Notes: a model not told the origin generated them from the sequence alone. A stretch of 64,000 nt of DNA from an uncultured Clostridia bacterium (GCA_937898625.1 CALEJF010000040.1:11278-75277); one strand, 5' to 3'. Positions 10,864-34,069 are shown, counted from the first letter of the stretch. Program-made: numbers and translations.

Positions 10864-10918
10864 TTTTCAAATTACAGTGTTATTCCATCTATAATGGAAT
10901 AATCTTCATATCAGTGTC

Positions 10919-11101
10919 CCCCGCAAAGTCGGTTGCGGTGAATACTAACCTGCATGTTAAGCAGGTGGGTGCTCTCCGTTCATATCTGTGCTCCCTTCTT
11001 CCGTCAAATGACGGGAGGTCTGCTCCCAATGAAATCGAGTAAAAGCTCCCTTTAATAGTGTGTTGGGTTAATATCGTCCGCAGTTGTCGGGCTTCGCAGG
11101 G
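10919..11101 (-). ncRNA. ssrS: Rod-shaped structured RNA, probable 6S RNA (ends approximate)
   Basis: This 183-nt GC-enriched island lies in a non-coding gap. Hand folding gives a 10-bp closing stem (CCCUGCGAAG/CUUUGCGGGG), then UGCGG/CCGCA and a 9-bp helix AUAUUAACC/GGUUAGUAU. A large central bubble follows (5' side CAACACACUAUUAAA; 3' side contains the hairpin ACCUGC-UUAACA-GCAGGU, which competes with the flanking helix). An irregular apical stem completes the fold. The 3' half (AUAUGAACGG...ACCUGCUU..GCAGG) resembles my recollection of B. subtilis 6S-1. A terminator follows. Confidence 0.55.
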
Positions 11102-11130
11102 TAATAATATTCTATTATTTAAAAATAAAA

Positions 11131-11450: not shown

Positions 11451-12119
11451 TTACAATACATAAACACCTGATTCAAGAACAACAATTTCTTTACCGCAGG
11501 AGCGTAAATACTTATAAACAGGCTCGTCAAAAATTCTGAAATCATTTACAGAATAATCTTTAAGGCTTATGGTTCTCACCTTTTGTGAGTCTGCATTACA
11601 AACAAATAATTCATCATCATATTTTGAAATTGCAACAGGCTTCTGAAATGATGTTGATTGTGCAGAACCAATTCTCATACTAAATTTTTTATGAGAAATT
11701 GAGTAATTAACTACACAATTCTTTTCAGGCACAACACTCCAAATCTGATTACCATCGGCAACTGCACCTGAAATCTCACTACCCTGATAATTCAAATCAC
11801 TTGACCATACCATTTCGCCATCAGGTGAGAAAATTCCTGTTTCACCGCTGTTATAAACCACAACAACATATTTGTTAGGAAGAATATCTGCATCACAGGA
11901 AACATAATCTCCAAGTTGCTCTGCTATTTTTTTGTATTCGGGACCATATTTATTAAGAAGATAAACACTTTTGGTCACGGGAGTATTTTGCATTCTTTTT
12001 ATATCGTATCCGTAGAAACTTACCTTAACAGACCCATTTTCAAGTACTGTCTTTTTTGTGTAAATGATACCGTTTGAGAATGCGATGATATCGTAAACCG
12101 AATCAACAATTTTCTGCAT
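11451..12119 (-). CDS. Hypothetical protein (beta-rich, possibly propeller-like)
   Basis: Long ORF. The start was set at MQKIVDSV, 4 nt after GGTGA. I recognise no family motif. Confidence 0.55.
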   Translation of the reverse strand: MQKIVDSVYDIIAFSNGIIYTKKTVLENGSVKVSFYGYDIKRMQNTPVTKSVYLLNKYGPEYKKIAEQLGDYVSCDADILPNKYVVVVYNSGETGIFSPDGEMVWSSDLNYQGSEISGAVADGNQIWSVVPEKNCVVNYSISHKKFSMRIGSAQSTSFQKPVAISKYDDELFVCNADSQKVRTISLKDYSVNDFRIFDEPVYKYLRSCGKEIVVLESGVYVL

Positions 12120-12209
12120 AAAATCACCGCTGAATATATAAAAATAAGATTTGTTTAGTATTAGCACACAATATTATACTATTATTTCTTCAAACGGTCA
12201 ATAAATAAA

Positions 12210-12740: not shown

Positions 12741-12884
12741 AAGTTTCATATCAATATTTTAAGTCACAATTAAAATTTGTGGCTTTATTATTTATTAAAC
12801 ACTTTACTATTTTTATGTTCTGTGTTAAAATAATAACAATAATGTGTAAAATTTTGTTTTGTTTTGTAAAACGAGGTTTTTGTT

Positions 12885-13535
12885 ATGGAAATATTTTCAA
12901 ATTTTGTTGAAATACTTGGTGTAATTGCGTTTTCAATTTCCGGTGCTATGGTTGCCATAAGAAGAAAAACCGACCTTTTTGGTGTTATACTTCTTGCGAT
13001 TATTACTGCTCACGGTGGAGGACTTACAAGGGACATTGTTTTCAGTTTCTCCCCTCCTGCAATCTTTGGATTAAAGTACTATATTCTAATTTCAACCGTA
13101 GTTGCGGTTATTGTTTTTCTCTTTGCAAGAAAATTCAGCCACACATATTTGGAAAACGAATTAAGAATAGAACATATTAACGATGTTTTTGACGCATTGG
13201 GACTTGGCGTTTTCGCGGTAATAGGTGTTAAAGTGGGAATTGAACAGGGGCATTACGGACATGCATTGATTTGTATTACTTGCGGACTTTTAACAGGTAT
13301 TTGCGGTGGTATGCTTCGTGATGTTCTTACAAACTATACTCCATTTGTGTTGGTAAAACGAATTTATGCTGTTGCTGCATTAGCAGGCGCATCAGTATAT
13401 TATATACTATACATATACGGCTCAGCAATCCATATAAACGAAACTTTTGCAATCATCATTGGTGTTGCCGTTACATTTATATTGAGAATTCTTGCTATGA
13501 CATTTAAATGGAATATGCCGATAGCGATTAAGTAG
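12885..13535 (+). CDS. TRIC-type (UPF0126/YadS) trimeric cation channel family membrane protein
   Basis: 216 aa. Internal duplication with GGGLTRD and CGGMLRD glycine-rich motifs in TM2/TM5. Confidence 0.8.
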   Translation: MEIFSNFVEILGVIAFSISGAMVAIRRKTDLFGVILLAIITAHGGGLTRDIVFSFSPPAIFGLKYYILISTVVAVIVFLFARKFSHTYLENELRIEHINDVFDALGLGVFAVIGVKVGIEQGHYGHALICITCGLLTGICGGMLRDVLTNYTPFVLVKRIYAVAALAGASVYYILYIYGSAIHINETFAIIIGVAVTFILRILAMTFKWNMPIAIK

Positions 13536-13544
13536 GGTGATAAA

Positions 13545-14309
13545 ATGAAAGGAAATGCAACTATTATTGCAGTTGCAGGTAAAGGTGGTGTTGGCAAAAC
13601 ATCGCTTTCTGCAACAATTGTCAGATGTCTTGTTGAAAAATATCCTGACAAGAAAATTTTAGCAATTGACGCTGACCCTGCTGTTGGACTTTCAACTGCA
13701 TTGGGAATTGATGTAAAGCTTACAATTGATGACATAAGAAAAGAGATTATTGCATCCGTTGACGAGGGTGACACTAGAACTGCTATTGAACTTTTAGGTG
13801 AAGCGAAATACAGAATTTTTGATGCACTTGTTGAAACAGACGGATATTCATTTATTGCAGTTGGTCGTCCTGAAACTGCAGGATGCTATTGCAAAATAAA
13901 TTCATATTTAAAGGAAGTCATTTCAATTCTTTCAAACGAATTTGATTATGTTGTTATTGACGGTGAAGCGGGAATTGAACAGATAAATCGTCGTGTTATG
14001 GAAAAAGTTACTCACCTTCTTCTTATTACTGACCCAAGTAAAAAAGGCGGTCAGGTTATAAACACAATAAAATCTGTTGCAGACGAGCTTGTTATGTATG
14101 AAAAAATCGGTGTAATTATAAACCGTATGGCAGATGAAAGTCTTAAAGATTACATCAACACAAATGGTATTCCTGTATTGAGTTATATCGAGGATGATAA
14201 AAACTTATCGGTATTTGATATTAAAGGAGAAAATATTTTTAATCTTCCTGCGGAATCAAATGTTGTAATTGGGGTTAAAAAAGCACTTAATGAGATTGGG
14301 GTTGTTTAA
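13545..14309 (+). CDS. CooC/AcsF-type P-loop ATPase (MinD/ParA superfamily, Ni-insertion accessory type)
   Basis: Deviant Walker A AGKGGVGKTS, IDADP, and the CooC-specific metal-binding G-C-x-C motif (ETAGCYCKINS). It starts 9 nt after the TRIC gene. Confidence 0.8.
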   Translation: MKGNATIIAVAGKGGVGKTSLSATIVRCLVEKYPDKKILAIDADPAVGLSTALGIDVKLTIDDIRKEIIASVDEGDTRTAIELLGEAKYRIFDALVETDGYSFIAVGRPETAGCYCKINSYLKEVISILSNEFDYVVIDGEAGIEQINRRVMEKVTHLLLITDPSKKGGQVINTIKSVADELVMYEKIGVIINRMADESLKDYINTNGIPVLSYIEDDKNLSVFDIKGENIFNLPAESNVVIGVKKALNEIGVV

Positions 14310-15515
14310 ATGAAAGATTTAAAACATTTAATCTATTTTGAAAACTTGTTGCAAGAGGCAAATAACGACCTCGTAAAGCAAGCAACAGGCGAAGGTAAAC
14401 TTGCTATTGCCTACACTTGCTATCACATTCCGGAAGTTTTGCTTAATCTTGACAACTGTTTTTCAGTAAGACTTAGAGCACCACGAACAGGCTCAATGGA
14501 TATTGCTACATACTATATGAGTTCATTCCTTTGTGGTTATTCAAAAGCAATTCTTGAACGCGGTATTGAGGGTGGATATAATTTCCTTTCTGCTCTTATG
14601 GGGTCAGAGACCTGTTCAGAAATGAATCGTACATACGAGCATTTTGAATTGCTTAACCTTGTTCCAAACGACAAATTCTTTGTAAGCTTTGTTGATTCAC
14701 CATTCAAAATTGAAAAGCACACAGTAAAACACTACGCTAATCAGTTGAGAATTAAAGTTCTTGATAAATTACAAGAAGTTTACGGTGTTGATACAAGTGA
14801 CGAGGCATTAAGAAAAGCCGTAGAAGAGCATAACGAGATTTGTCGACTTATTACTGAAATCGGTGAATACAGAAAAGAAGAAAACCCAAGAATTACAGGT
14901 TATGAATTCCATGTTCTTTGTGTTGCAACATATTGCTGTCCAAAATATTTAATTCTTGATAAACTTCGTGAAACTGCAGAAGAATTAAAGACAAGAGAGC
15001 CTGATGCTAAAAAGAATTACCGAGCAAAAATTGTTGTTGTAGGCTCTGAAATGGACGACCCTGACTTTACAAAACTCATTGAAGACAGTGGTGCATTGGT
15101 TGTTGCTGACCGTTTCTGTTTCGGCTCAATGCCAGGTAGAGAAGAAATTGTTTTGAATGACGAAGACGATGTTCTTACACAGATTGCACTTCACTATATG
15201 AAGACAAGCCAATGCCCAAGATATATGAGTCACGAAAAGGTTCAGGAAAGACGTGACTATGTTAAAGAATTGGTTGATACATACCACGCAGATGGTGTTA
15301 TGTATGAACAGATTAAATTCTGCGAGTATTGGGGTTACGAGCGTGCCCTTGCTTCCTATGTTATGAGTGGTGATTATGGTGTACCAACTGCTGCAGTTGA
15401 CCGTCAGTATACCGCATCTGCATCAGGACAGCTTCGTACCCGTGTTCAGGCTTTTGTTGAAAGCCTCGAAATTAAGAAAATCCAAAAAGCAAAGGAGATG
15501 AGAGAAAATGGATAA
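14310..15515 (+). CDS. 2-hydroxyacyl-CoA dehydratase / benzoyl-CoA reductase family subunit (HgdB/BcrC-like, 401 aa)
   Basis: HGD-D family pattern: AYTCYHIPEV near the N-terminus, SETCSEMNR, GSEMDDPD...ADRFCFG, and KFCEYWGYE. The ATG directly abuts the CooC stop (TAAATG). Confidence 0.8.
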   Translation: MKDLKHLIYFENLLQEANNDLVKQATGEGKLAIAYTCYHIPEVLLNLDNCFSVRLRAPRTGSMDIATYYMSSFLCGYSKAILERGIEGGYNFLSALMGSETCSEMNRTYEHFELLNLVPNDKFFVSFVDSPFKIEKHTVKHYANQLRIKVLDKLQEVYGVDTSDEALRKAVEEHNEICRLITEIGEYRKEENPRITGYEFHVLCVATYCCPKYLILDKLRETAEELKTREPDAKKNYRAKIVVVGSEMDDPDFTKLIEDSGALVVADRFCFGSMPGREEIVLNDEDDVLTQIALHYMKTSQCPRYMSHEKVQERRDYVKELVDTYHADGVMYEQIKFCEYWGYERALASYVMSGDYGVPTAAVDRQYTASASGQLRTRVQAFVESLEIKKIQKAKEMRENG

Positions 15516-17037
15516 TTATGGTAAGCTTTACAAGGAGCATACTGCCATACTAAAACATCGCGAATGGCGTGGTTTTAAAGACACAATGTACGATTACTAC
15601 CGTTGGCTTGTTACATGGAAAGACATTATTAAAATGGCGCTTAAAGCTCCTGTTTCAACAGTAAAAGGTATTTGGAGATATCGTTGGATGGCATCCTATC
15701 TCTCTGCTCCGTCATTTATTGACCGTCATGTTGCAGGGCTTCGTGGTCCACAACTTCGTATGGCTCATTTGCATTATAATATGATTGTTAAGCATACGAC
15801 GGATATGATTAACTTATCATTAAAGGCTGACGAAAAAATCAATCCAAACAACAAACTCTCAAAGAGAATTGTTTTAATGGATGAAATTGTTCCAAATGAA
15901 ATCTTTACAGGTTTTCCAAATCTTATTCCCGTACCATTACAGACATTACCAATTTTCCTTGCTTCAATGGTTGACCAGCAGATTACACCACCTTATCTTG
16001 AGGTTGTTGAAAGTTTTGGTGTTCCTGCTGATGTTTGTCCCCTTCCAAGTGCTGAAGCAGGTGTTGCTATTGAAGACGATTACCCCAAAATGGGTTGTTG
16101 TATGATTGGTACAAACATGCCTTGCGACGGCTCAATTATGAACTCATCATTCCTTGACAGAAGATTGCAGTTGCCCACACATTGTTTTGGTATTCCGCTT
16201 CGTTATAACGGAGAAGATGTTCAGGAATATGGTGTTGACGAAATCAAAGCACTTATTGAATTCATAGAAAAGCAGACCGGTGAAAAGTTTGACTGGGATG
16301 CGTATTTCAGTAGAATGAAACAGTATAACGAACAGCTTGAATATGAATTGCAGAAATGGGACATTAACCGAACTGAATACCCACAGATGACAGGTGCTTG
16401 TTTCTGGCTTTACAGAATTTTCTATTTCAACCTTTCCGGTGGTTCAAATGAGCGTTTCTTAAAGGTCGACAAAAAAGTTAATAAAATTATGATGAAAGCC
16501 TATGAAAAGAAAACTCCTGTTTCAAAGGAAATGCGTCATAGAGCAGTTGTATGGTCCTGCCCTGCTAACTACTACACAAGCTTTGCAAACTGGCTTGAAA
16601 ACTGTTGGGGCGTAAATGTTGTTATGGATATGGAAACAATGATTTCATATCTTCACATTGACACAGAAGATAAAGAACAATCCCTTAAAGACCTTGCAAA
16701 AACATATCAGCGTTCAATTATGAGAAAGCACACCAAGGGTGGTTACAAAAATGTTGTTGACGAACTTTGGAGAATAGTTGACGAATACAATGCTGATACA
16801 GTTATTATGTATGACCAGATTTCTTGTAAAGGTATGGATGGTCTTACAGGTATATTTGATGACCAGGCAAGAGAGAGAAATGTTAACTTTATCTGGGTTA
16901 AACAAGACCTTATGGACCCACGCACAATTTCCCGTCGTGAAATGCGTGACCAGGTTAACAAATATATGCAGACAGTTTTACAAGAAGAGCCACTTGACCC
17001 TTCACTTGTAGATTTTGAAGATGATTTGGCTTGGTAA
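15508..17037 (+). CDS. 2-hydroxyacyl-CoA dehydratase / benzoyl-CoA reductase family subunit (HgdA/BcrB-like, 509 aa)
   Basis: Same family (DVCPLPSAEAG, NMPCDGS, WSCPANYY, QISCKGMDG). It overlaps the preceding gene by 8 nt and AAGGAG lies upstream. It is longer than the characterised alpha subunits I recall. Confidence 0.78.
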   Translation: MDNYGKLYKEHTAILKHREWRGFKDTMYDYYRWLVTWKDIIKMALKAPVSTVKGIWRYRWMASYLSAPSFIDRHVAGLRGPQLRMAHLHYNMIVKHTTDMINLSLKADEKINPNNKLSKRIVLMDEIVPNEIFTGFPNLIPVPLQTLPIFLASMVDQQITPPYLEVVESFGVPADVCPLPSAEAGVAIEDDYPKMGCCMIGTNMPCDGSIMNSSFLDRRLQLPTHCFGIPLRYNGEDVQEYGVDEIKALIEFIEKQTGEKFDWDAYFSRMKQYNEQLEYELQKWDINRTEYPQMTGACFWLYRIFYFNLSGGSNERFLKVDKKVNKIMMKAYEKKTPVSKEMRHRAVVWSCPANYYTSFANWLENCWGVNVVMDMETMISYLHIDTEDKEQSLKDLAKTYQRSIMRKHTKGGYKNVVDELWRIVDEYNADTVIMYDQISCKGMDGLTGIFDDQARERNVNFIWVKQDLMDPRTISRREMRDQVNKYMQTVLQEEPLDPSLVDFEDDLAW

Positions 17038-17051
17038 AGGAGAAGATAAAA

Positions 17052-17852
17052 ATGAAGTATTTTGGTGGATGCGATGTTGGCTCAACATATACAAAATGTG
17101 TTATTCTTGATGAAAACGGTAATATGGTTGCCAATGTGACTAATAGAAGTAAAATAAATCCTGTTCAGAGTGCTGAAATCGCACTCCAAGATGCAGTTGC
17201 ACAAGTAGATGGACTTAACTCTGCAAAGGAACTTACATATCTTATCGGTACAGGTTACGGACGAAACAAAGTTCCTTTTGCTGACGAAAACATTTCTGAA
17301 ATCAGTTGTCACGCTATGGGCGTACATGTTACAAACCCTGAAGTTAAAGCAATTATCGATATCGGCGGTCAGGATGTTAAAGGTATTTCAATTGACACAG
17401 ACGGTACTGTTAAAAACTTTGCTATGAACGACAAATGCGCTGCAGGTACAGGCCGTTTCTATGAGGCTATGGCTAATGCTTTTGAAATGACATTACCCGA
17501 ATTCTCAAAGCTTTCACTTAATGCAAAAAACACTATTCCGATTACTGCACAGTGTACGGTTTTTGCTGAATCAGAAGTTATTTCACTTGTTGGCGAAGGT
17601 AAACCAATGGACGAAATCGCAGCGGGTATTCAGTTAGCAGTTGCAAAGCGTTGTTTTGTTATGGCTAAAAAGGCCGGTGCAGTTGACAGCATCACGCTTA
17701 CAGGTGGTTGTGCAAAGAACGATGGTCTTAAAAAGGCTATTGAAAAAGTGCTTAAAATCAATGTTGTTGAGTTAAAGACTGACCCACAACTTATGGGTGC
17801 TTTAGGTGCTGCTGAATATGCACGCCAGAAAGGTCTTGCAAAGGTGAACTAA
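17052..17852 (+). CDS. HgdC/HadI-type ATP-dependent activase (BcrAD_BadFG ATPase with bridging [4Fe-4S] Cys)
   Basis: GCDVGSTYTKC, IDIGGQD, NDKCAAGTGRF and TGGCAKN motifs. Start at ATG after AGGAG; the tracked ORF begins at an upstream TTG. Confidence 0.88.
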   Translation: MKYFGGCDVGSTYTKCVILDENGNMVANVTNRSKINPVQSAEIALQDAVAQVDGLNSAKELTYLIGTGYGRNKVPFADENISEISCHAMGVHVTNPEVKAIIDIGGQDVKGISIDTDGTVKNFAMNDKCAAGTGRFYEAMANAFEMTLPEFSKLSLNAKNTIPITAQCTVFAESEVISLVGEGKPMDEIAAGIQLAVAKRCFVMAKKAGAVDSITLTGGCAKNDGLKKAIEKVLKINVVELKTDPQLMGALGAAEYARQKGLAKVN

Positions 17853-18008
17853 ATGAATGTTATTTTAATAATTCTTGGTGTTATTCTTGCACTTTTCCTT
17901 ATAACTTTTGCAATTTACTGGTTCAATCTTGATATGAAGCTTGTAAGAGTTGTTTATGACTGGTTGCAGAAACACTACGATAAAATGAAAAGAGATAAGA
18001 AATTATAA
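17853..18008 (+). CDS. 51-aa single-pass membrane micro-protein (not in ORF track)
   Basis: My own translation: MNVILIILGVILALFLITFAIYWFNLDMKLVRVVYDWLQKHYDKMKRDKKL. RBS GGTGA lies 5 nt upstream. The ATG immediately follows the activase stop, and the micro-ORF stop overlaps the next ATG (TAATG). Confidence 0.6.
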   Translation: MNVILIILGVILALFLITFAIYWFNLDMKLVRVVYDWLQKHYDKMKRDKKL

Positions 18009-18700
18009 TGAGATTATATAATAACCTTATCAATGAAATTAAAAGCAGCCTATGTAATTCAAAGTTACTTTCGGATGGGAAAAACCTTGATGTGAGTAAC
18101 AGAAACTCTGTTATTTTCTTGTCGGACTCAGCATTTGAACTTGGTGGTAGTCAAAAACCTTGTGTAAGCAGTCTTGCGGTTTCAAGTGATATGGAATTCT
18201 CAAATTCCGTAAAATTATTAGGTGATGACCTTAACGAAATTAAAAGTGACTCCCCTTTTGGCAAGTTTGTGCTGTTACAAATTGAAGATTTTGAAAATGA
18301 ACAAGACACCTTCAATAAAATCAAAGAACTAGAAGCTTTAAGATACCATCTGAATGTGGATGGATTTATGACAAGAGCATCGGCACTTAATATGCGTGAG
18401 CAGATTAGAATCAGCAAAAAAGCGATTAAATCCGGTGTTACTTTTGCTGATTACGGACAGACTCTTTTAAATGAATATCTTAGATTCGATTATGTTAAAA
18501 GTGCTGAAATATACTTTGTGACGAATTTTGATGACTTTGAAAAGTTAAATACAGTTGCAAAGAAAATAAGTCAGACAACATCGGCACTAAATCATATTTT
18601 TGATAATGTGATGTTTGACTGCTCTACTTGCAATCTTAAAGAAATCTGCGACGAAGTTGACGGACTAAAAGAATTGCATTTGAAGACTATGAAAAAATGA
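18008..18700 (+). CDS. Stand-alone acetyl-CoA synthase (AcsB/CdhC) middle-domain-like protein, 230 aa
   Basis: Several blocks align with the remembered Moorella AcsB region ~320-520: AFELGG; VKLLGDDLNEI vs IEVIGPDIDQI; RISKKAIKSGVTFADYGQTLL vs RVSKDAVAKGFRFKNYGEILV; and C-terminal FDCSTCNLKEIC vs YSCVLCQSFAPNHVC. Confidence 0.5.
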   Translation: MRLYNNLINEIKSSLCNSKLLSDGKNLDVSNRNSVIFLSDSAFELGGSQKPCVSSLAVSSDMEFSNSVKLLGDDLNEIKSDSPFGKFVLLQIEDFENEQDTFNKIKELEALRYHLNVDGFMTRASALNMREQIRISKKAIKSGVTFADYGQTLLNEYLRFDYVKSAEIYFVTNFDDFEKLNTVAKKISQTTSALNHIFDNVMFDCSTCNLKEICDEVDGLKELHLKTMKK

Positions 18701-18730
18701 ATATAAAAGATTTATTAAGGAGTGTTAAAT

Positions 18731-20371
18731 GTGAAAAAAGTAGTTTCCTTATTACTTTCAGTTGTGCTTGTATTCTGTACAATAATTCCTGCTTTTGCAG
18801 GGGTGGATGCAAACGAAAGTAAAAGCCAAATTCCTGTTATCCGTATTTCGGGTGATGGTGAACCACTTTATGACGAAGATGGCAACAAAATATTCCACTA
18901 TAAGGATGTTGTGAAACTCGTTTCAGGTGAAAATGGCGACAATAGTGAAATGTACAAATCAATGGCTAAAACTCTTATTCCTGCTATTGCCAAGGGTCTT
19001 GCAACAGACAATTGGGATGACCTTTATGTTGGTCTTGAAACAGAAATAAGCAAAATTTTTGCTAACTCTTTACTTGACGAAAACGGTAATGTGACTAATG
19101 GTTCCGGTTTATCCCAAAGTCGAAAAGAGCAGATGGAAAACAAGAGAAACAACAGCCAAAAGGGTGACAAGGGCTACTTTGCATGGAACGACTATTGGTT
19201 CCACTATGACTGGCGACTTGACCCTATGGAAACTGCTGATGTATTTAACTCATTTGTTAAAGATATCAAGAGAACAACCGGTTGTGAAAAGGTTGGTATT
19301 GCCGCAACATGCCTCGGCACTAACATTGTTATGGCGTATGTTGCAAAATATGGTGTAGATGATATTCAGGGTATAGCAATGGATGGCAGCGTTGTTGGTG
19401 GTGCAGAAATTTTAAGTGAAGTTATCTGTGCAAAGTTCGATATTGCTCCTCCTGCACTAATGAGAATTCTTCGTGATGTTGATGGACTTGGTATGTTTAA
19501 CATAGAAGATTTTATTCTTGAAACAATAGATATGCTTGTTAAGACAGGAGTTCTTGAAGGTGTAATCAGCACAACAGAAAACCTCTTATATGACAAACTT
19601 GTTGAAGGCGTAACTTCTGCCCTCGCTCTTTCAACATTCTATACCTGGCCAAACTATTGGGCTTGTGTAAGTCCGGAAGACTATGAATCAGCCAAATATT
19701 ATGTGTTTGGTGAAGAAGGCAGCGAAAAGAGAATAAAATACGCCGGTCTTATTCAAAAACTTGATAATTACGATAAGGAAGTTCGCCAAAGAGTTCCTGA
19801 ACTTATCCAGAAGATTAAGGATGGTGGCGCAAACTTTGGTGCAATTTCAAAATACGGATTCCAGATGATACCTATTTGTGCAAGTGCTGATTTAGTTTCA
19901 GACCAATTCGCTTCTGTAAAGCGTTCATCTTTCGGCGCAACAACACCAACTGTTTATGAAACTCTTTCGGACGAATATATTGCTCAGAGAACAGCTGAAG
20001 GTAAGGGTCACTATATCTCCCCAGACAAGCTCATTGATGCTTCTACATGCATATGTCCGGACACTACCTGGTTCATCAAAGGTTCTACCCATTCCAAATG
20101 GACATCTTACGAACTCAAAATACTTTATGAGGTTGCATCTGCAGACAGACAGTTGACTATTAAAGATTTCCCATATACTCAGTTTATGGTTTATGACGCT
20201 GAAACTGATACACTTGAACCGATGACTGAAGAAAACTGTCATACAGAATACTGGGACGCTGACCCGGATATTTATAAACCAGCAACGACTGTTGACCAAA
20301 TCGAAGTTACTATCAACTCAGTTTTACATTGGTTAAAACATTTTGTTGTATTTGTTGGTAATAAAATCTAA
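18731..20371 (+). CDS. Secreted LCAT/lipase-like alpha/beta-hydrolase fold protein
   Basis: GTG start 8 nt after AAGGAG gives MKKVVSLLLSVVLVFCTIIPAFA-G (Sec signal peptide). It has the FHYDWRLDP motif of the LCAT family. The nucleophile elbow reads AATCLGT instead of GHSLG. Confidence 0.6.
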   Translation: MKKVVSLLLSVVLVFCTIIPAFAGVDANESKSQIPVIRISGDGEPLYDEDGNKIFHYKDVVKLVSGENGDNSEMYKSMAKTLIPAIAKGLATDNWDDLYVGLETEISKIFANSLLDENGNVTNGSGLSQSRKEQMENKRNNSQKGDKGYFAWNDYWFHYDWRLDPMETADVFNSFVKDIKRTTGCEKVGIAATCLGTNIVMAYVAKYGVDDIQGIAMDGSVVGGAEILSEVICAKFDIAPPALMRILRDVDGLGMFNIEDFILETIDMLVKTGVLEGVISTTENLLYDKLVEGVTSALALSTFYTWPNYWACVSPEDYESAKYYVFGEEGSEKRIKYAGLIQKLDNYDKEVRQRVPELIQKIKDGGANFGAISKYGFQMIPICASADLVSDQFASVKRSSFGATTPTVYETLSDEYIAQRTAEGKGHYISPDKLIDASTCICPDTTWFIKGSTHSKWTSYELKILYEVASADRQLTIKDFPYTQFMVYDAETDTLEPMTEENCHTEYWDADPDIYKPATTVDQIEVTINSVLHWLKHFVVFVGNKI

Positions 20372-20392
20372 ACATTGTATAAATAACATTAA

Positions 20393-20433
20393 CCCCCTTA
20401 ACAACAATACTGTTGCTGAGGGGGTTCCTTTTT
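20393..20433 (+). terminator. Terminator ending the 12.9-20.4 kb operon
   Basis: CCCCCTTAACAACA-ATAC-TGTTGCTGAGGGGG followed by TTCCTTTTT. It lies between convergent genes. Confidence 0.7.
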
Positions 20434-21529
20434 AACTTAACATTGAAAGTATTTCTTTGAATTCAGGCGTTGATTTGAATTCATCGGATAATGGGTAATG
20501 TTCGGTCATTACAATCTTCATAAATTGAGATAAATTAGTTTCACGGTAAATCGGTCCGAAATTATAATGTCTCATCACTTTTTCTGAAATATCTGGGTTT
20601 TCATCAAGTTCCTTTGCATATTCAGCAGTAATTTTAAGATATTTTAAAGCATTTATATCATCACCGATTTGATGATACAAATGACCTATATGCCCATAAT
20701 TATAAAGTCTGTTAACGCAATTTTTACCATAATTTCCATCACAAAATATCAAATTAATTAATCCTTGTATATGATTAATAATCTCAAGTCTTTTTTCGGG
20801 TTTATAATTATAGCTATACCCAAATAATGTATCTTGCAATATGAACAACAATTCTTCAAGAGCATTCCTATGCGTTGTATTATAGTTTTCTGTGTCAAAA
20901 GCCAAACCCATCAGCATCAATTCCCCGGAATCTTTCATTGATGGTAAAGTGTTAGTAATTTCTTCTGCTTGTTTAAGATATTCATTATTTGTACGATAAT
21001 TACCTTCTTCGTTTGGCACACAACTGTATAATGTCAATAAATGAGAAATCATAATTACTTTTGAGCGTATTCTTATATTGTCATCCGTACAATGACTCTG
21101 TATCTTTTCATAAATAGATGCAATCTCTTTTGAAATCTCTTTATATTCACCCTCTCCAAAACCTTTAACTTCGTACAAAAGCTCCAAATATCGAATTAAA
21201 ATGCGAAAATCATTTGGAAATTCCTTAACTGCTTTTTGAAACTTGTTATATGTTAAGTTTAAGTCTTTCAACTTCATATCATCATAAAGTTTAATATATT
21301 CATTGATTTTTTCTTCTTCCCGTGATTTATTGACGCCAAGTAAATCATCAATAGAGACATCGAAAAATCTTGAAATAATCGGGAGGGTTGTTATATCTGG
21401 ATAGGTTTCTCCCCTTTCCCATTTGCTGATTGTCTGGAACGATACACCTAAAAAGTCTGCAAGATTTTCTTGAGTAAGGTCTTTTTCTTTGCGTAATCGC
21501 TTAAGATTTTCACCAAAAAATATTGTCAT
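20432..21529 (-). CDS. XRE-family HTH regulator with long helical-repeat (TPR-like) C-terminal domain
   Basis: N-terminus LKRLRKEKDLTQENLADFLGVSFQTISKWERGETYPD, followed by ~300 aa of helical repeats. Start at MTIFFGE after GAGGTG. Confidence 0.8.
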   Translation of the reverse strand: MTIFFGENLKRLRKEKDLTQENLADFLGVSFQTISKWERGETYPDITTLPIISRFFDVSIDDLLGVNKSREEEKINEYIKLYDDMKLKDLNLTYNKFQKAVKEFPNDFRILIRYLELLYEVKGFGEGEYKEISKEIASIYEKIQSHCTDDNIRIRSKVIMISHLLTLYSCVPNEEGNYRTNNEYLKQAEEITNTLPSMKDSGELMLMGLAFDTENYNTTHRNALEELLFILQDTLFGYSYNYKPEKRLEIINHIQGLINLIFCDGNYGKNCVNRLYNYGHIGHLYHQIGDDINALKYLKITAEYAKELDENPDISEKVMRHYNFGPIYRETNLSQFMKIVMTEHYPLSDEFKSTPEFKEILSMLS

Positions 21530-21737
21530 TATTATCACCTCAAAATATTTCTTGTAGCTACAAATCAATAGTATCTTGATTGTTGATACTTTTCAATAAC
21601 ATTATAGGTGAACAAAATTCGCTTGTAAAGAGAAATATTCTATTAGATATATTGTACTTCATTTAAATCATAATAAACAAATTGGGAGTTTGTCGGGATG
21701 TTTAATTCTTTTGGGTATAATATAACGAGGTGTATTT

Positions 21738-22088
21738 ATGAGTGGTGTAAAAAAATTTTTTTCGGGAGTTGTAATTGGTATTGTAAATGTGGTTTTAGGT
21801 GCAGGTGGCGGAATGCTGACAGTACCACTATACAAGAAGATAGGTATGGAACAAAAAGAAGCTCAAATCAACGCAGTTGCAACTATTCTTCCAATCACCA
21901 TTATCAGTGCAATTATATATCTTCTAAATGGTAATGTGCAATTTTCTGACACATATATTTACCTTATTCCCGGACTTGTGGGCAGTATTCTTGGCACATT
22001 TGTAATAAGAAAAACATCAAATAAATTTTTGACAATTTTCTTTTCGATTTTTATGATTTGGGCAGGATTGAGGTTGTTTTTTAAGTGA
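21738..22088 (+). CDS. TauE/SafE (DUF81) family membrane protein, N-terminal-repeat half (116 aa)
   Basis: VLGAGGGMLTVPL motif and 4 predicted TM segments. Confidence 0.7.
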   Translation: MSGVKKFFSGVVIGIVNVVLGAGGGMLTVPLYKKIGMEQKEAQINAVATILPITIISAIIYLLNGNVQFSDTYIYLIPGLVGSILGTFVIRKTSNKFLTIFFSIFMIWAGLRLFFK

Positions 22089-22459
22089 ATTATTTAATGC
22101 CTGTTATTGCAGGTTTTTTATCAGGTTTAATCGGGTCAATGGGTTTTGGCGGTGGCGGAGTTTTAATAATTTATCTTGTTATTTTCACAAATACATCACA
22201 ACTCACAGCACAAGGCATAAATCTTATATTTTTCATTCCTTGTGCAACATTAGCAACCATTATTTACTCTGTTAAAAAGCAAGTTGAATTCAAAAAGATT
22301 TATCCCGTAATTATTGGCGGAATAATCGGTGCAATTATTGCAAGTTTTTTCCTTAAAAATATAGAAAGTCAACTTTTAACAAAGGTGTTTGCAACATTTT
22401 TGATTATTATGGGAATTAATACATTATTTAGAGTAAAAAAAGTGAAAAATGAATGTTAA
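22085..22459 (+). CDS. TauE/SafE (DUF81) family membrane protein, C-terminal-repeat half (124 aa)
   Basis: SMGFGGGGVLIIYL motif. Its GTG start overlaps the upstream TGA (GTGA). Confidence 0.65.
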   Translation: MNYLMPVIAGFLSGLIGSMGFGGGGVLIIYLVIFTNTSQLTAQGINLIFFIPCATLATIIYSVKKQVEFKKIYPVIIGGIIGAIIASFFLKNIESQLLTKVFATFLIIMGINTLFRVKKVKNEC

Positions 22460-22565: not shown

Positions 22566-22636
22566 ATCTACAATACATTAAATTGGGAAATTTTGTATTT
22601 TATGTATTAACTATTTGTGTTTGGAGGCAAAAAACT

Positions 22637-24019
22637 ATGAAAGTACAGTTTACAGAAACCGTATTGAGAGATGCCAACCAGTCACTTATTGCTACAAGAA
22701 TGCCGTTCGCTGATTTCGAACCAGCTCTTGAAAAGCTTAATAAGGCCGGTTACTATTCTCTTGAGTGCTGGGGCGGTGCTACATTTGACTCATGTCTTCG
22801 TTATCTTAATGAAGACCCATGGGAAAGACTTCGCAACATCAAAGCTAAATGTCCTGATACAAAGCTTCAGATGCTTCTTCGTGGTCAAAACCTTTTAGGT
22901 TATAAACACTATCCGGATGATGTTGTAAGAATGTTTGTTAAGAAAAGTATTGAAAACGGTATTGATGTTATCAGAATTTTCGATGCACTCAACGATGTTC
23001 GTAACATTCAGGTGGCAGTTGACGAAACAATAAAAAACGGTGCAATTGCATCAGGTGCTATTTCTTATACAACAAGCCCTGTTCACACACTCCAGAATTA
23101 TGTTGCTCTTTGTAAAGAAATGAAAGAAATGGGTTGTTCTACAATCTGTATCAAAGATATGGCAGGTGTTATGACTCCCGTTGAGGCAAAAGACCTTGTT
23201 GGTGCTATTAAGGACGCAATGCCTGAAATGCCTGTTATTCTTCATACTCACTGCACAACAGGTATGGCTTATATGACAATCCTTAAAGCAGTTGAGGCAG
23301 GTTGCGATATTATTGACACTGCAACATCTTGTTTCTCAGGTGGTACTGCTCAACCTGCAACAGAAACACTTTATGATGCTCTTACAGGTCTTGGCTATGA
23401 AACAGGTCTTGACAGAGACACATTAAAAGCAGTAAATGACCACTTTAAGCCACTTCGTGACCAGTATCTTTCATCAGGTCTTTTAAAACCAAAAGCACTT
23501 GTAACTGATACAGATGCATTGACATATAAAGTTCCCGGCGGTATGCTTTCAAATATGATGGCAAACCTTGAGGATATGAATGCTCTTGACAGAATGGAAG
23601 AAGCTCTTTTAGAAATTCCTCAGGTTCGTAAGGATATGGGCTATCCCCCACTTGTTACTCCCCTCAGCCAGATGGTTGGTAACCAGGCTGTTACAAATGT
23701 ACTTGTTGGTGAAAGATATAAGAATATTTCAAAAGAAATCAAGGCTTATATCAAGGGTGAATATGGTAAGGCACCGGGCGAAATTGACGCAGACCTTCAG
23801 AAGAAAGTTCTTGGTGATGATGAGCCTGTAACATGTCGTTTTGCTGATACTCTTGAACCAATGTTTGAACAGACAAAGGCTGAACTTGGCGATATGGCAA
23901 AATGTGATGAAGATGTTCTTTCATATATCGCATTCCCTGCTCAGGCTGAAAAATTCCTTGAAGCAAGAGCAGAAAAAGAAAAGAACACATTTAAGTATTC
24001 AATCAAGAGAATTGACTAA
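22637..24019 (+). CDS. oadA: Oxaloacetate decarboxylase alpha subunit, carboxyltransferase part (no biotinyl domain)
   Basis: MKVQFTETVLRDANQSL (HMGL-like TIM barrel), HTHCTTGMA, and a PYC_OADA C-terminal region. It ends without an AMKM motif. ATG after GGAGG. Confidence 0.88.
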   Translation: MKVQFTETVLRDANQSLIATRMPFADFEPALEKLNKAGYYSLECWGGATFDSCLRYLNEDPWERLRNIKAKCPDTKLQMLLRGQNLLGYKHYPDDVVRMFVKKSIENGIDVIRIFDALNDVRNIQVAVDETIKNGAIASGAISYTTSPVHTLQNYVALCKEMKEMGCSTICIKDMAGVMTPVEAKDLVGAIKDAMPEMPVILHTHCTTGMAYMTILKAVEAGCDIIDTATSCFSGGTAQPATETLYDALTGLGYETGLDRDTLKAVNDHFKPLRDQYLSSGLLKPKALVTDTDALTYKVPGGMLSNMMANLEDMNALDRMEEALLEIPQVRKDMGYPPLVTPLSQMVGNQAVTNVLVGERYKNISKEIKAYIKGEYGKAPGEIDADLQKKVLGDDEPVTCRFADTLEPMFEQTKAELGDMAKCDEDVLSYIAFPAQAEKFLEARAEKEKNTFKYSIKRID

Positions 24020-24031
24020 GGAGGACATAAA

Positions 24032-24631
24032 ATGGCATTATCAGAAATTTTAAGTATTTCTGCTACCGGTTTTATTGTCGTTTTAATTATTCTTGTTCTT
24101 CTTGCAGTTATTATTGTTGGCATTTCAAAAGTTATCCGTACTTTTGAAGGTGGTGCGAAAAAAACAGATGATGCAGAAAAAGTAGAAGCTCCTGCTCCTA
24201 AAAAGGAAACAAAACCTGCTCCTGCACCTGTTTCTGCTCCTGTTACAACAGTTGCACCTGCACAGCAAGTTGATGGTCTTATGCTTTATAAAACAGACTA
24301 CAAAACTGCAGCATCAATTATGGCTATTGTAAGTCACGAAAGTGGTATTCCACTTAACAAACTTGCTTTCAGCTCAATCAAACTTGATGACTCTCTTGAA
24401 CTTTATAAAACAGACTATAAAACAGCGGCATCAATTATGGCTATTGTAAGCCATCAAACAGAAATTCCTCTCGAAAGACTTGTTTTTAGGTCAATCAGAC
24501 TTTGCGACACACCTGAACTTTATAAAACAGATGAAGAAACTGCTGCTAAAGTAATGGCAATCACAAGCAAAGAATCAGGAATTCCACTTGACAGACTTGT
24601 ATTTAAATCAATTAAACTTATTGAGAAATAA
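24032..24631 (+). CDS. oadG: OadG-like membrane anchor subunit with Ala/Pro linker and three tandem 39-aa modules
   Basis: N-terminal TM segment [18 protein letters not shown] typical of OadG/GcdD, then a PAPAP linker, then 3 repeats of LYKTD(Y/E)(K/E)TAA..MAI.S...(G/E)IPL..L.F.SI.L. Confidence 0.7.
24284..24628 (+). repeat. Three tandem in-frame 117/117/111-nt repeats inside the OadG-like gene
   Basis: Units at 24284-24400, 24401-24517 and 24518-24628. The first ~50 nt of units 1 and 2 differ at only about 3 positions. Confidence 0.9.
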
Positions 24632-24645
24632 AGGAGAATATCAAA

Positions 24646-25077
24646 ATGAAATATGTAGTTACATTAAACGGAAATGATTACGAAGTTGAAGTAAATGAAC
24701 TTAACGAAGCAGTTGTTACTGCTGTTGTTCCATCTGCAGCTCCTGTTGTAGTTGCTGCTCCTGTTGCACCTGTTGTAGCACCTGTTGCTGCTCCTGCCCC
24801 CACTCCTGTTGTTGAGGCAGCTCCAGCTCCTGCAGCTGCACCTGCTCCTGTTGCAATTGGTGATGGTACAAAAGTTACTGCTCCAATGCCAGGTACTGTT
24901 CTTTCAGTTAACATTTCAAACGGTCAGGCAGTAAATGAAGGCGATGTTCTTTTCATTCTTGAAGCTATGAAGATGGAAAATGAAATCGTTGCTCCTTGTG
25001 CAGGTACTGTTAAGCAAGTTATTGCAACAAAGGGTGCATCAGTTGCTACTGACGAAGTTCTTGCAGTTATCGGCTAA
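24646..25077 (+). CDS. Biotin carboxyl carrier protein of the decarboxylase (biotinyl domain with Ala/Pro linker)
   Basis: EAMKMENEI biotinylation motif and a long AP-rich linker. Confidence 0.88.
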
Positions 25078-25090
25078 TTGAGGTGCAATT

Positions 25091-26275
25091 ATGCAGATAG
25101 TAAACGCTCTTGTAGAGCTTTTTAATCAATCTAATTTTGTTAACTTGCCTTGGCAGAACTGGATTATGATTGGTGTTTCATTTGTTCTTCTCTATCTTGC
25201 GATAGTAAAGAAATTTGAGCCATTACTCTTAATCCCTATTGCTTTTGGTATGCTTCTTGTTAACATTTATCCCGAAATTATGGCAGACCCCACTAATATG
25301 TCATTTGTCGGCGATAACAATCCATATTTAGACCCAAATGCACATTGGTATGATACAGGCGTTTTACGACTTATCTACGCAGGTGTTAAGTCTAGTATCT
25401 TCCCCTGCCTTATCTTTATGGGCGTTGGTGCTATGACTGACTTCGGACCACTCCTTGCAAATCCATCAAGCCTTCTTTTAGGTGCTGCTGCACAATTAGG
25501 TATTTATGTAGCATTTACAATTGCAATGCTTTCAGGTGAATTCACACCCGAAGAAGCTGCTTCTATTGCTATTATAGGTGGTGCTGATGGTCCTACAGCA
25601 ATTTTCCTTACAGGAAAACTTGCTCCTCACCTTTTGGGTTCAATCGCAGTTGCCGCATATTCATATATGGCTTTGATTCCACTTATTCAGCCACCAATTA
25701 TGAAATTGCTTACAACTAAAAAGGAAAGAGAAATCAAGATGAATCAGCTTCGTACAGTAAGTAAAGCTGAAAAGATTATCTTCCCAATTGTTGTTACTGT
25801 TATCTGTGTTCTTATTCTTCCTTCAGTTGCTCCTCTTCTTGGTTTCCTTATGCTTGGTAACCTTTTCAAAGAAAGTGGACTTACTGACAGACTTTCAGAC
25901 ACAGCACAGAATTCCCTTTGTAATATTGTTACAATCTTGCTTGGCACAACTGTTGGTGCAACAGCAGAAGGTTCAGCATTCCTTAATAAGAAAACACTTC
26001 TTGTTATTGGTATCGGATTGCTCGCTTTTGCATTCTCCACTGCAGGTGGTGTAATCTTTGCAAAGATTATGAATGTTGTAACAAAGGGCAAGGTTAACCC
26101 ACTTATCGGTTCAGCAGGTGTATCTGCTGTTCCTATGGCTGCTCGTGTTTCACAGGTTGAGGGTAGAAAATACAATCCTTCAAATTTCCTTTTAATGCAC
26201 GCAATGGGTCCAAATGTTGCAGGTGTTATCGGTTCAGCAGTTGCTGCCGGTTTCTTACTTTCACAATTCGGTTAA
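25091..26275 (+). CDS. oadB: Na+-translocating decarboxylase beta subunit
   Basis: 394-aa polytopic protein of the OadB/GcdB/MmdB type (GGADGPT, GSAGVSAVPMAARV). Confidence 0.9.
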   Translation: MQIVNALVELFNQSNFVNLPWQNWIMIGVSFVLLYLAIVKKFEPLLLIPIAFGMLLVNIYPEIMADPTNMSFVGDNNPYLDPNAHWYDTGVLRLIYAGVKSSIFPCLIFMGVGAMTDFGPLLANPSSLLLGAAAQLGIYVAFTIAMLSGEFTPEEAASIAIIGGADGPTAIFLTGKLAPHLLGSIAVAAYSYMALIPLIQPPIMKLLTTKKEREIKMNQLRTVSKAEKIIFPIVVTVICVLILPSVAPLLGFLMLGNLFKESGLTDRLSDTAQNSLCNIVTILLGTTVGATAEGSAFLNKKTLLVIGIGLLAFAFSTAGGVIFAKIMNVVTKGKVNPLIGSAGVSAVPMAARVSQVEGRKYNPSNFLLMHAMGPNVAGVIGSAVAAGFLLSQFG

Positions 26276-26296: not shown

Positions 26297-26330
26297 ATGC
26301 CGTAGTCAAAATGACTACGGCATATTTTTA
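26297..26330. terminator. Bidirectional terminator between oadB and sfsA
   Basis: ATGCCGTAGTCA / TGACTACGGCAT 12-bp stem followed by ATTTTTAT. Confidence 0.8.
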
Positions 26331-27002
26331 TATCTTTATGAGAACCGGTTTTCTGATTTTAATTGTATCGGGAGTTACTGCACAATCAAATGCTAATGGA
26401 ACAACTTCGCCTTTTCTTGCCTCTTTTAGTGTATCCGCGAATTGAGGATGAGTTATTCTGTTGGGTTCAAAATATTTCACATCGGACATCTGAATAACGA
26501 ACAGCACATAGGCTTTATATCCCTCTGTAACGGCTTTTTGTAGTTCTTTAAGGTGTTTAACTCCCCTTTCAGTTGGTGCATCAGGAAAACTCACTACACC
26601 ATCATTTTCGAGAGTTACGCCTTTGACCTCAACGAATATCTTTTCACATTCCGTTTCAATATAGAAATCAAGTCGTGAATTACCATATTTATATTCGGGT
26701 TTTATGAATTTAACACCTTCAAAAAGTGTTGGAAGAAACTCAAAAGCAACCTTGTTAACCACTTGACTATCAATATTTATTAATCTATCGTTCTTTTGGA
26801 CAGCAATAAGGTCATATTTAGTTTTTCTGTTTGGGTTGGAACTTTTCTCAAGATAAACAGTAACGCCTTTTACAAGCAATTCTCGGCATCTTCCGGTATT
26901 TTTTACATGACAGATTTCTTTATTCCCATTAATTTCGCAAATTGCAATAAATCGGTTAGGTCTGTCTATAAATGTTCCTTTTATTATATTTTCGTATTTC
27001 AT
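26328..27002 (-). CDS. sfsA: Sugar fermentation stimulation protein SfsA
   Basis: GTFIDRPNRFIA...HVKNTGRCRELL...DFYIE are typical SfsA motifs. Confidence 0.88.
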   Translation of the reverse strand: MKYENIIKGTFIDRPNRFIAICEINGNKEICHVKNTGRCRELLVKGVTVYLEKSSNPNRKTKYDLIAVQKNDRLINIDSQVVNKVAFEFLPTLFEGVKFIKPEYKYGNSRLDFYIETECEKIFVEVKGVTLENDGVVSFPDAPTERGVKHLKELQKAVTEGYKAYVLFVIQMSDVKYFEPNRITHPQFADTLKEARKGEVVPLAFDCAVTPDTIKIRKPVLIKI

Positions 27003-27010
27003 ATAACACC

Positions 27011-27044
27011 AAAAAAGAACGGTGATAGTTTCCTACCACCGTCC
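27011..27044 (-). terminator. Terminator downstream of the GPH transporter gene
   Basis: On the minus strand: GGACGGTG-N12-CACCGTTC followed by TTTTTTGG. Confidence 0.7.
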
Positions 27045-27065
27045 TTAATTATTTAATAAATAGAA

Positions 27066-28625: not shown

Positions 28626-28705
28626 AAAATCCCTCTTTCTAAATATAATACTGAGATTATAACACAATACATTGTTTATTTCAATGATATTTTAACAAAA
28701 AATGA

Positions 28706-33995: not shown

Positions 33996-34069
33996 ACTCA
34001 ATCACCGAGAATATAATATCACAATCATATTTTTTTAGCAATAGAATGGTTATTTATTTACATATTATT

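Follow-up and report, generated by a model that had tools for sequence, protein, structure and literature searches.

A stretch of 64,000 nucleotides (nt) from an uncultured Clostridia bacterium (GCA_937898625.1 CALEJF010000040.1:11278-75277; hereafter the window, at its full length) carries a string of eight genes on its + strand. Six of these form a conserved unit, encoding in order a CooC-like ATPase, two subunits of 401 and 509 amino acids (aa), an activase, a 51-aa membrane peptide and a 230-aa protein related to acetyl-CoA synthase (ACS). The arrangement is far beyond chance, with its gene order recurring in 49 of 58 independent genome loci having enough flanking sequence. Both subunits belong to the superfamily of benzoyl-CoA reductases (BCR), 2-hydroxyacyl-CoA dehydratases (HAD) and double-cubane cluster proteins (DCCP). 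On balance and with modest confidence, we read the six genes as a module for a putative ATP-driven iron–sulfur (Fe-S) enzyme of very low potential from this superfamily, working with a shared accessory pair. From gene content, gene order, conservation, fold and ligand alignment, all of which were computed here, we infer the cofactors, the electron path, the membrane tethering and the job of the CooC-like and ACS-like proteins.

The eight open reading frames (ORFs) were confirmed as tightly packed at the coordinates listed below, with junction gaps of 9, 0, -8, 14, 0, -1 and 30 nt as read from the sequence, values that assume an ATG start at 17052 for the activase and a GTG start at 18731, with an AAGGAG ribosome-binding site, for the last gene. 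Purine-rich ribosome-binding sites lay ahead of most of the eight genes. An earlier account of the window, made from its sequence alone (the sequence-only reading), had described the same eight + strand genes, the same gaps and a strong terminator at 20393-20433, all of which we found as described, and its domain calls for the TRIC-like, CooC-like, paired PF06050, activase and CdhC-type proteins agreed with the matches obtained here in Pfam, NCBIfam and PDB.

12741-12884, + strand: upstream intergenic region, with sigma-70-like hexamer matches, e.g. 12803-12831 with a TG extension
12885-13535, + strand: TRIC-like/UPF0126 membrane protein, 216 aa (PF03458)
13545-14309, + strand: CooC/AcsF-type MinD-family ATPase, 254 aa, core gene 1 (match to CooC1 3kje)
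14310-15515, + strand: BzdN/DCCP-like subunit, 401 aa, core gene 2 (PF06050, BzdN match, six Cys)
15508-17037, + strand: BzdO/MbdO/HadB-like putative catalytic subunit, 509 aa, core gene 3 (PF06050, three Cys)
17052-17852, + strand: ASKHA-type ATP-dependent electron-transfer activase, 266 aa, core gene 4 (TIGR00241)
17853-18008, + strand: single-pass membrane peptide, 51 aa, core gene 5 (conserved in loci)
18008-18700, + strand: truncated ACS-like predicted Fe-S protein, 230 aa, core gene 6 (PF03598, ACS A2 fold)
18731-20371, + strand: secreted protein with a weak alpha/beta-hydrolase signature, 546 aa (signal peptide)
20393-20433, + strand: intrinsic terminator (hairpin and T-run)

Conservation of the six-gene order

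Relatives of the 230-aa protein were sought in one genome per GTDB species using a 14-sequence alignment as the query, and for the neighbourhoods ORFs were called in the best 80 of at least 578 loci and then searched with the window proteins. At least 578 GTDB species were found to encode a relative, the closest among those listed being metagenome-assembled genomes (MAGs) of 'Candidatus Fimenecus', at 88% identity. Among the 58 loci having at least 5.2 kb of upstream sequence, 49 carried the genes for the CooC-like protein, the 401-aa and 509-aa subunits, the activase, (the transmembrane peptide) and the 230-aa protein on the same strand and in the order of the window, an order still kept where identity had fallen to about 35%. 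The CooC-like gene stood alone beside the 230-aa gene in eight of the 58 and was found further upstream in one. Carriers of the cassette at 35-40% identity of the 230-aa protein included the cultured Pseudobutyrivibrio ruminis, P. xylanivorans, Butyrivibrio fibrisolvens 16/4, Clostridium algidicarnis and C. amylolyticum, and the full cassette was also present in one Erysipelotrichaceae MAG. Relatives of the 230-aa protein at 25-28% identity still adjoined an activase, small transmembrane peptides and/or a CooC-like gene, and members of the Christensenella/CAG:238 clade kept the CooC-like gene next to that for the 230-aa protein even with no other cassette gene within 10 kb. The neighbours of loci carrying only these two genes were unrelated, e.g. 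TldD/PmbA or GlmS.

When all flanking ORFs of the 80 loci were clustered, no other conserved gene family was found outside the Fimenecus clade. Six genes make up the conserved unit, namely those for the CooC-like ATPase, the 401-aa and 509-aa subunits, the activase, the 51-aa peptide and the 230-aa protein. The sequence-only reading had described an operon of eight genes, and of this claim the six core genes stand as a unit, while the TRIC-like gene and the hydrolase gene proved to be lineage-specific. Conserved co-occurrence, which had been named beforehand as the test of that claim, held for the six genes but not for the outer two across the 80 loci.

Two loci gave further insight into how the unit may be organized. 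Both L074 and L075 had a second, paralogous 401/509 pair beside the main cassette (L074:1587-4717, - strand; L075:1675-4868, + strand), with all cluster cysteines kept and with a separate transmembrane peptide directly after the 509-like gene, its sequence showing the same F-[ND]-L-D ... YDKMKR signature. A second activase, CooC-like or 230-aa gene was absent from these second pairs. Since they carry their own membrane peptide and no extra accessories, the peptide belongs to the catalytic pair, and the activase, CooC-like and ACS-like genes look like shared accessories; this suggests that several catalytic pairs share one accessory set in these two loci.

The predicted catalytic pair, the activase and the membrane peptide

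Both subunits matched PF06050, the 401-aa subunit at 316 bits and the 509-aa subunit at 159 bits. The best PDB match of the 401-aa subunit was BzdN (8s02_B, 5.6e-26), where Cys36, 73, 100, 263, 293 and 327 are the ligands of an [8Fe-9S] cluster (PMC11971306). All six aligned one-to-one with C37, C75, C102, C270, C302 and C338 of the 401-aa subunit, residues that were invariant in 63 of 63 orthologues, and the subunit is predicted to carry an [8Fe-9S] double-cubane. It had been termed HgdB-like from the sequence alone, a label that holds at the level of the PF06050 superfamily and gives way to a BzdN/DCCP-type double-cubane pattern once the six ligands are aligned.

The 509-aa subunit gave no match in a single-sequence PDB search and a profile was needed, which, when built from 21 orthologues, matched DCCP (3.7e-11), MbdO (8.9e-7), BzdO (6.5e-5) and HadB (2e-3). 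Its C177, C206 and C440 were invariant in 66 of 66 sequences and aligned with the three-Cys site of MbdO as well as with the proximal-cubane cysteines of its paralogue, and judged by these alignments the subunit is a predicted carrier of a three-Cys [4Fe-4S] cluster with an open iron site. It also has an N-terminal extension of about 125 aa (residues 1-125) with many invariant Arg, Trp and Tyr residues, and an acidic C-terminal tail (493-509; EEPLDP..DF.DD..W) with a last Trp that was invariant in all orthologues and paralogues. Residues H344 and C366 were invariant too and lay outside the cluster-ligand columns; C366 was considered as a stand-in ligand for a distal cubane and ruled out, being located about nine residues ahead of the column of C270 in the paralogue.

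Taken together, six ligand cysteines of the BzdN type and the three-Cys site of the 509-aa subunit argue for a core that is BzdNO-like rather than an amino-acid-fermentation dehydratase. An ordinary dehydratase of the latter kind, with its CoA-transferase encoded elsewhere and with the CooC-like and ACS-like genes being unrelated or decayed acs remnants, would agree with the Pfam name HGD-D given to both subunits and with an activase of classical type. The linkage is however conserved to about 25-35% identity, the 230-aa family is under selection, having invariant cysteines and, at E < 1e-10, no fewer than 251 clusters of 50% identity, the cluster cysteines of the beta-type subunit number six rather than three, and the HadC score (NF052456, 86.6 against a cut-off of 700 bits) and other equivalog scores were far too low. 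We therefore consider this explanation extremely improbable and in effect ruled out by the conservation observed and by the subunit with six cysteines.

DCCP reduces acetylene, azide and hydrazine, and a second alternative is a DCCP-like reductase or detoxifier of small molecules with the double-cubane of the 401-aa subunit as its active site, the 509-aa subunit and the other proteins being structural or electron-supply accessories. The double-cubane reductase model was indeed the best NCBIfam match of both subunits, the N-terminal half of the 509-aa subunit was closest to DCCP, there were no linked genes of CoA metabolism in the window or in the flanks of the 80 loci, and the hosts are saccharolytic and not degraders of aromatics or amino acids. 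Both scores were nevertheless far under the cut-off of 350 bits (NF040772), the 401-aa subunit reaching 135.7 and the 509-aa subunit 53.4 bits. Moreover, the pair would be a heterodimer with an open three-Cys cluster in its larger subunit, a cluster that is the active site in BzdO and HadB (PMC11971306), and the seventh, channel-side Cys present in DCCP classes I and II (PMC7317905) is missing from the 401-aa subunit. We judge this explanation distinctly improbable.

The activase scored 214 bits against TIGR00241 (cut-off 125) and matched MbdQ (5.4e-62), HadI (5.5e-57) and HgdC (8.6e-55) in PDB, with the cluster-bridging cysteine motifs NDKC129 and QC168TVFAESE conserved. A single activase gene was found in the window and in all cassette loci, which implies a homodimer, as in HAD and DCCP. 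The 51-aa peptide, found in 72 loci, consists of an N-terminal transmembrane helix, an N-L-D motif and a basic cytoplasmic helix, and its residues N25, L26, D27, K29 and D43 were at least 97% conserved.

The CooC-like ATPase and the ACS-like protein

The best PDB match of the 254-aa ATPase was CooC1 from Carboxydothermus hydrogenoformans (3kje, 7e-14), with which it shares the deviant Walker A motif GKGGVGKT(S). The G-C114-Y-C116 motif aligned with C112/C114 of CooC1, which form a Zn/Ni site at the dimer interface (PMC6006190), and C114 and C116 were invariant in 68-69 of 69 orthologues. Neither cooS nor a full acsB was linked to the CooC-like gene in the window, the linkage instead being to the gene for the 230-aa truncated ACS homologue. 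By analogy, insertion of a metal by the CooC-like protein, into the enzyme or into a partner, as proposed in the sequence-only reading, is plausible, and for such a role we know of no precedent other than AcsF/CooC acting on ACS/CODH (carbon monoxide dehydrogenase).

For the 230-aa protein, an exact sequence look-up returned no record, and the relative of 83% identity encoded at locus L001 was used instead. The protein matched PF03598 (CdhC) at 29.7 bits (cut-off 24), and a HMMER search of 1.84 billion representative proteins gave 433 clusters at 50% identity, 251 of them below 1e-10, with nearly all family members being stand-alone proteins of 230-250 aa. In databases they are called 'hypothetical protein', 'carbon monoxide dehydrogenase' or 'CO dehydrogenase/acetyl-CoA synthase beta subunit'. 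In the 39 members compared, with identity as low as 24%, only G72, C205, C208 and C214 were invariant, giving the family a cysteine motif of D-C-x2-C-x5-C (C205-x2-C208-x5-C214), followed by -x9-H224 in the cassette-linked subfamily, which also keeps H196, D204, D215, E216 and H224. The number of clusters (at least 251 at E < 1e-10), the invariant cysteines and the constant length argue that the family is under selection and not a pseudogene.

An AlphaFold2 model of the protein had a pLDDT of 91.7, and when it was compared with PDB using Foldseek, all 22 matches at E <= 0.001 were ACS chains (2e-11 to 3e-6), with the next match at 0.15. In profile searches, residues ~36-208 aligned with residues 329-499 of ACS, corresponding to domain A2, and a profile of the C-terminal half placed 'ldCksC' onto 'ysCvlC' of Moorella thermoacetica ACS, ending at residue 509, so that C205 and C208 equal C506 and C509. 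The latter two are established ligands of the A-cluster cubane, and C509 also bridges to the proximal Ni. Comparing the four A-cluster ligands C506, C509, C518 and C528, the spacing of C214 was x5 vs x8 in ACS, and C214-x9-H224 mirrors the spacing of C518-x9-C528, to which it would correspond. The protein had been described as resembling the AcsB/CdhC middle domain; its A2 fold bears this out, although it is more than a middle domain, with the first cysteines of the A-cluster cubane motif also kept. The N-terminal A1 domain is missing.

Acetyl-CoA binds mainly in the A2 domain in the structure of Clostridium autoethanogenum ACS (bioRxiv 10.1101/2024.08.05.606187). Its adenine-stacking Trp405 would, by the offset from R-x-x-H and the W spacing, be W427 of the M. 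thermoacetica enzyme, and the equivalent column holds Gln in the window protein and Trp in many distant members ('REW'), next to an RVSK motif common to the 230-aa protein and ACS. Binding of CoA or a nucleotide by the 230-aa protein is thus possible as judged from its sequence. One family member (P0183, 308 aa) was found to have a C-terminal 2x[4Fe-4S] ferredoxin domain fused to the 230-aa-type protein, on two independent metagenome contigs from different samples (L087:235-1161 and L088:216-1142), each time followed by a CooC-like gene. This fusion points to a role of the family in electron transfer or redox chemistry.

These properties also bear on the alternative, a strong form of the metal-insertion proposal in the sequence-only reading, that the CooC-like ATPase inserts Ni or another heterometal into the 230-aa protein or the 509-aa subunit, where it would give a Ni-Fe-S site, a minimal analogue of the A-cluster, for catalysis on a CoA-linked substrate. 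In line with that, the CXC metal site and the P-loop show full conservation and match the Ni/Zn site of CooC1 in alignment, C208, being the equivalent of the C509 that bridges cubane and proximal Ni in ACS, is kept, and there are invariant residues both around the cysteine triad (H196, D204, D215, E216, H224) and in the 509-aa subunit (C366/H344). Characterised partners of the ATPase family, as given in PMC6006190 and, for AcsF, as cited in PMC10134865 (ref. 87), are all Ni-Fe-S enzymes. The Ni ligands and the A3 domain of ACS are however absent, C366 falls outside the cluster-ligand columns of the paralogue, the ferredoxin fusion fits simple electron transfer better, and tight Ni binding is not general among CooC proteins (PMC6006190). 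Ni insertion is by this analogy an unlikely but serious alternative. It is quite unlikely that the ATPase builds a hitherto unseen heterometal (Ni-)Fe-S centre on either protein, by which non-acetogenic gut Clostridia would gain an ATP-energised organometallic or thioester chemistry, related to that of the A-cluster, on a substrate bound to CoA; if true, Ni-Fe-S enzymes would have a new class, and ACS would be linked in evolution with the BCR/HAD/DCCP superfamily.

Gene surroundings, proposed role and related systems

No CoA-transferase, ETF (electron-transferring flavoprotein), acyl-CoA dehydrogenase, cooS or full-length acsB was found when all scanned ORFs of at least 120 aa in the 64 kb were searched with Pfam, four of the window ORFs (21738-22459, 26328-28667) being labelled only through Pfam calls on the homologous locus L001. 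The only 2-Hacid_dh match in the window was a SerA-like ACT-domain protein beside a SerC-like gene. The usual metabolic partners were likewise absent from the 10-kb flanks of the 80 related loci. The absence of CoA-transferase, ETF, cooS and acsB noted in the sequence-only reading thus holds for the window ORFs scanned and extends to these flanks. NCBIfam release 20 (June 2026) and Pfam held no specific family for the 230-, 51-, 401- or 509-aa products, with no NCBIfam model passed, and we found no full-text paper joining a CooC-type gene with HAD/BCR/activase genes, the coverage of subscription journals being incomplete. Haft's SAO/double-cubane preprint and the isoprene-reductase paper were considered as prior descriptions and concern different clusters. 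The superfamily of the catalytic core is hence known, and the three additional partners (CooC-like, ACS-like and membrane peptide) are without precedent found described.

The two outer genes of the string had a narrow distribution. The 216-aa product matched PF03458 at 131 bits with two repeats, as in prokaryotic TRIC/UPF0126 proteins of about 210 aa, and among the 80 loci its gene was confined to those of Fimenecus type (L001-L019 and L063), with none of the non-Fimenecus loci carrying it; in the window it is probably co-transcribed with the string. In L001, the relative of 83% identity, a His_Phos_1 histidine-phosphatase gene (4148-4864) lies between bofA and the TRIC-like gene where the window has a spacer of 144 nt, which makes the upstream edge of the string variable. 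The 546-aa product has a signal peptide (VKKVVSLLLSVVLVFCTIIPAFA) and as its sole match Abhydrolase_1 at 19.7 bits, below the cut-off of 25.8. It had been labelled an LCAT-like hydrolase, for which we found no support: there was no LCAT match and only a sub-threshold alpha/beta-hydrolase signature, with the secretion signal present. Its gene was found only in the window and L002 among the 80 loci and was absent from L001; it sits between the ACS-like gene and the terminator, where close relatives pass straight from the 230-aa gene to a convergent helix-turn-helix (HTH) regulator gene (compare L001:10696-10765).

The terminator at 20393-20433 consists of a 10+5 bp hairpin (AACCCCCTTA...GAGGGGGTT; dG -21.7 kcal/mol) followed by CCTTTTT. 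It stands tail-to-tail with a convergent HTH-regulator gene on the - strand (20432-21568), abutting its stop (20432), and is probably bidirectional. The intergenic region at 12741-12884 is the sole sizeable non-coding gap ahead of the string, and its sigma-70-like matches are consensus matches only, with a density not above that of shuffled sequence. A simple scan for internal terminators in the string found none above chance (6 found vs 6.5 expected), and a consensus scan showed no excess of promoter-like and terminator-like sites inside it over shuffled sequence, a result that neither supports nor contradicts a single transcript for the eight genes.

Elsewhere in the window, a methylenetetrahydrofolate reductase gene lies directly downstream of genes for a NuoE-like [2Fe-2S] protein, a NuoF-like flavoprotein and an 875-aa Fer2/GltD-like/Fer4 protein (33138-39067, - strand), a set that looks like a flavin-based electron-bifurcating module tied to MetF in a non-acetogen. 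A second set (22583-26275, + strand), resembling a membrane oxaloacetate (or related) decarboxylase, comprises an HMGL-like/PYC_OADA alpha subunit, a 199-aa protein having no Pfam match, a biotinyl carrier (by homology to L001) and an OAD_beta membrane subunit, with a split TauE pair upstream of it at 21738-22459. A 6S RNA (Rfam RF00013, 60.4 bits) was found at 10914-11105 on the - strand, under several spurious ORFs between SpoIIR-like and DUF1292-like genes, and a single tRNA gene (Rfam RF00005, 49.6 bits) at 30281-30364 on the - strand, upstream of a RadC-like gene. Two further - strand ORFs, of 238 aa (11451-12167) and 458 aa (62130-63506), had no Pfam match; at the corresponding position L001 has a 222-aa gene, also with no Pfam match.

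In the scheme that we propose for the six-gene module, an activase homodimer with a bridging [4Fe-4S] cluster (C129/C168) would receive an electron, donated by ferredoxin or else by the 230-aa Fe-S protein, and ATP hydrolysis at the activase would drive this electron into the [8Fe-9S] cluster of the 401-aa subunit, a double-cubane that may store electrons as it does in BzdN. The electron would then move to the open-site [4Fe-4S] cluster of the 509-aa subunit, where the substrate, probably a carbonyl or thioester compound and perhaps a CoA ester, would be reduced or dehydrated via radical chemistry. Tethering of the catalytic heterodimer to the membrane, at its inner face, would be the task of the 51-aa peptide. 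The 230-aa protein would bind an Fe-S cluster through its three cysteines, the homologues of those that ligate the cubane in the ACS A-cluster, and its A2-type surface might bind a nucleotide or CoA moiety or dock a partner, making it a dedicated redox or adaptor subunit. The CooC-like dimer, using ATP and its CXC site, could load or remodel a metal centre of the 230-aa protein or the 509-aa subunit.

Several observations weigh against this scheme. Eight loci have just the CooC/ACS-like pair within 10 kb, and at the deep relative L084 a 230-aa-type gene stands alone beside a TetR gene. No conserved transporter, regulator or metabolic neighbour was found in the flanks of the 80 loci as a hint to the substrate, and no riboswitch or other RNA element upstream of the cassette in the window and seven loci. 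The scheme does not account for the invariant C366/H344 or for the ...DDxxW tail in the 509-aa subunit. With regards to the 230-aa protein, its cysteine loop was modelled at low confidence (pLDDT 57-72), H224 as candidate fourth ligand is not kept in the deepest family members, and the protein, ending 16 residues past C214, lacks the Ni ligands C595-G596-C597 together with the remainder of A3. Finally, BzdNO assembles its double-cubane in Escherichia coli with no dedicated maturase (PMC11971306), so that by precedent the CooC-like protein is not needed for the double-cubane.

The lack of conserved metabolic neighbours would also suit a rather different function, namely an ATP-driven machine for reductive activation or repair of another metalloprotein, like RACo acting on CoFeSP or the MCR activation complex on MCR, and the same can be said of the two different ATPases, the ACS-like adaptor domain and the wide, housekeeping-like spread of the module. 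This function is very unlikely in our view, as there is no linked candidate client, the duplicate pairs of L074 and L075 resemble substrate diversification, and no member of the superfamily is known to act on proteins.

Among known systems, the predicted architecture is closest to the Bzd/Mbd type of class I BCR (BzdNO + BzdPQ; PDB 8S02, 9G87/9GAI), the single activase gene apart, when sequence features are compared. The likeness lies in two paralogous PF06050 subunits with a six-Cys and a three-Cys site and in an ASKHA ATPase module having MbdQ as its best PDB match. The cassette differs in having one activase gene where BCR has a P/Q heterodimer, in scoring far under the bzdN equivalog cut-off (TIGR03190, 102.4 vs 453.8 bits), and in the N-terminal extension of about 125 aa and the acidic, W-terminated tail of its larger subunit. 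There are furthermore no aromatic-degradation genes near it, and its CooC-like, ACS-like and membrane-peptide partners are found with no BCR.

With DCCP/DCCP-R (PDB 6ENO, 7YYL) the cassette shares the double-cubane cysteine pattern of the 401-aa subunit, a dedicated ASKHA reductase and the CPL and CDG motifs of the 509-aa subunit, which align best with DCCP. However, DCCP is a homodimer with a seven-Cys motif, whereas the cassette would form a heterodimer with one paralogue devoid of distal cubane ligands; its scores are under the NF040772 cut-off, the 509-aa subunit has three of the motif cysteines, and CooC-like and ACS-like genes are absent from DCCP loci. The 2-hydroxyacyl-CoA dehydratases (HadBC/HadI, HgdAB/HgdC) are likewise members of the superfamily, with an alpha/beta pair and a homodimeric activase encoded together and a three-Cys open-site [4Fe-4S] cluster in the larger subunit. 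The beta-type subunit of the cassette, in contrast, has six cluster cysteines where HAD has three and a single [4Fe-4S] cluster, the context of CoA-transferase, 2-hydroxyacid dehydrogenase and ETF is missing, the scores fall short of the equivalog cut-offs, and the hosts are mostly saccharolytic Clostridia.

The accessory genes recall a fourth system, insertion of Ni into the A-cluster by AcsF/CooC, in that a CooC-type ATPase with P-loop and CXC motif lies beside an ACS homologue having the A2 fold and the equivalents of C506/C509. That homologue is, however, only 230 aa long, with no A1, no rest of A3 and no C595/G596/C597, and the cassette has no genes for CODH, CoFeSP or methyltransferase and is linked to a BCR/HAD-type enzyme instead (49 of 58 loci).

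The BCR/HAD/DCCP superfamily carries out some of the most reducing reactions in biology. Most members from gut anaerobes are, to our knowledge, functionally unassigned, and double-cubane proteins still await a physiological role. The cassette described here is common in gut and rumen Clostridia, including culturable Butyrivibrio, Pseudobutyrivibrio and Clostridium, and it is self-contained and hence directly testable. With it, a CooC/AcsF-type ATPase and an ACS-derived domain would for the first time be seen at work outside CO/acetyl-CoA metabolism, and the [8Fe-9S] cluster would gain a second defined context. Knowing what the enzyme acts on could bring to light a reductive reaction so far unrecognised in the fermenters of gut and rumen.

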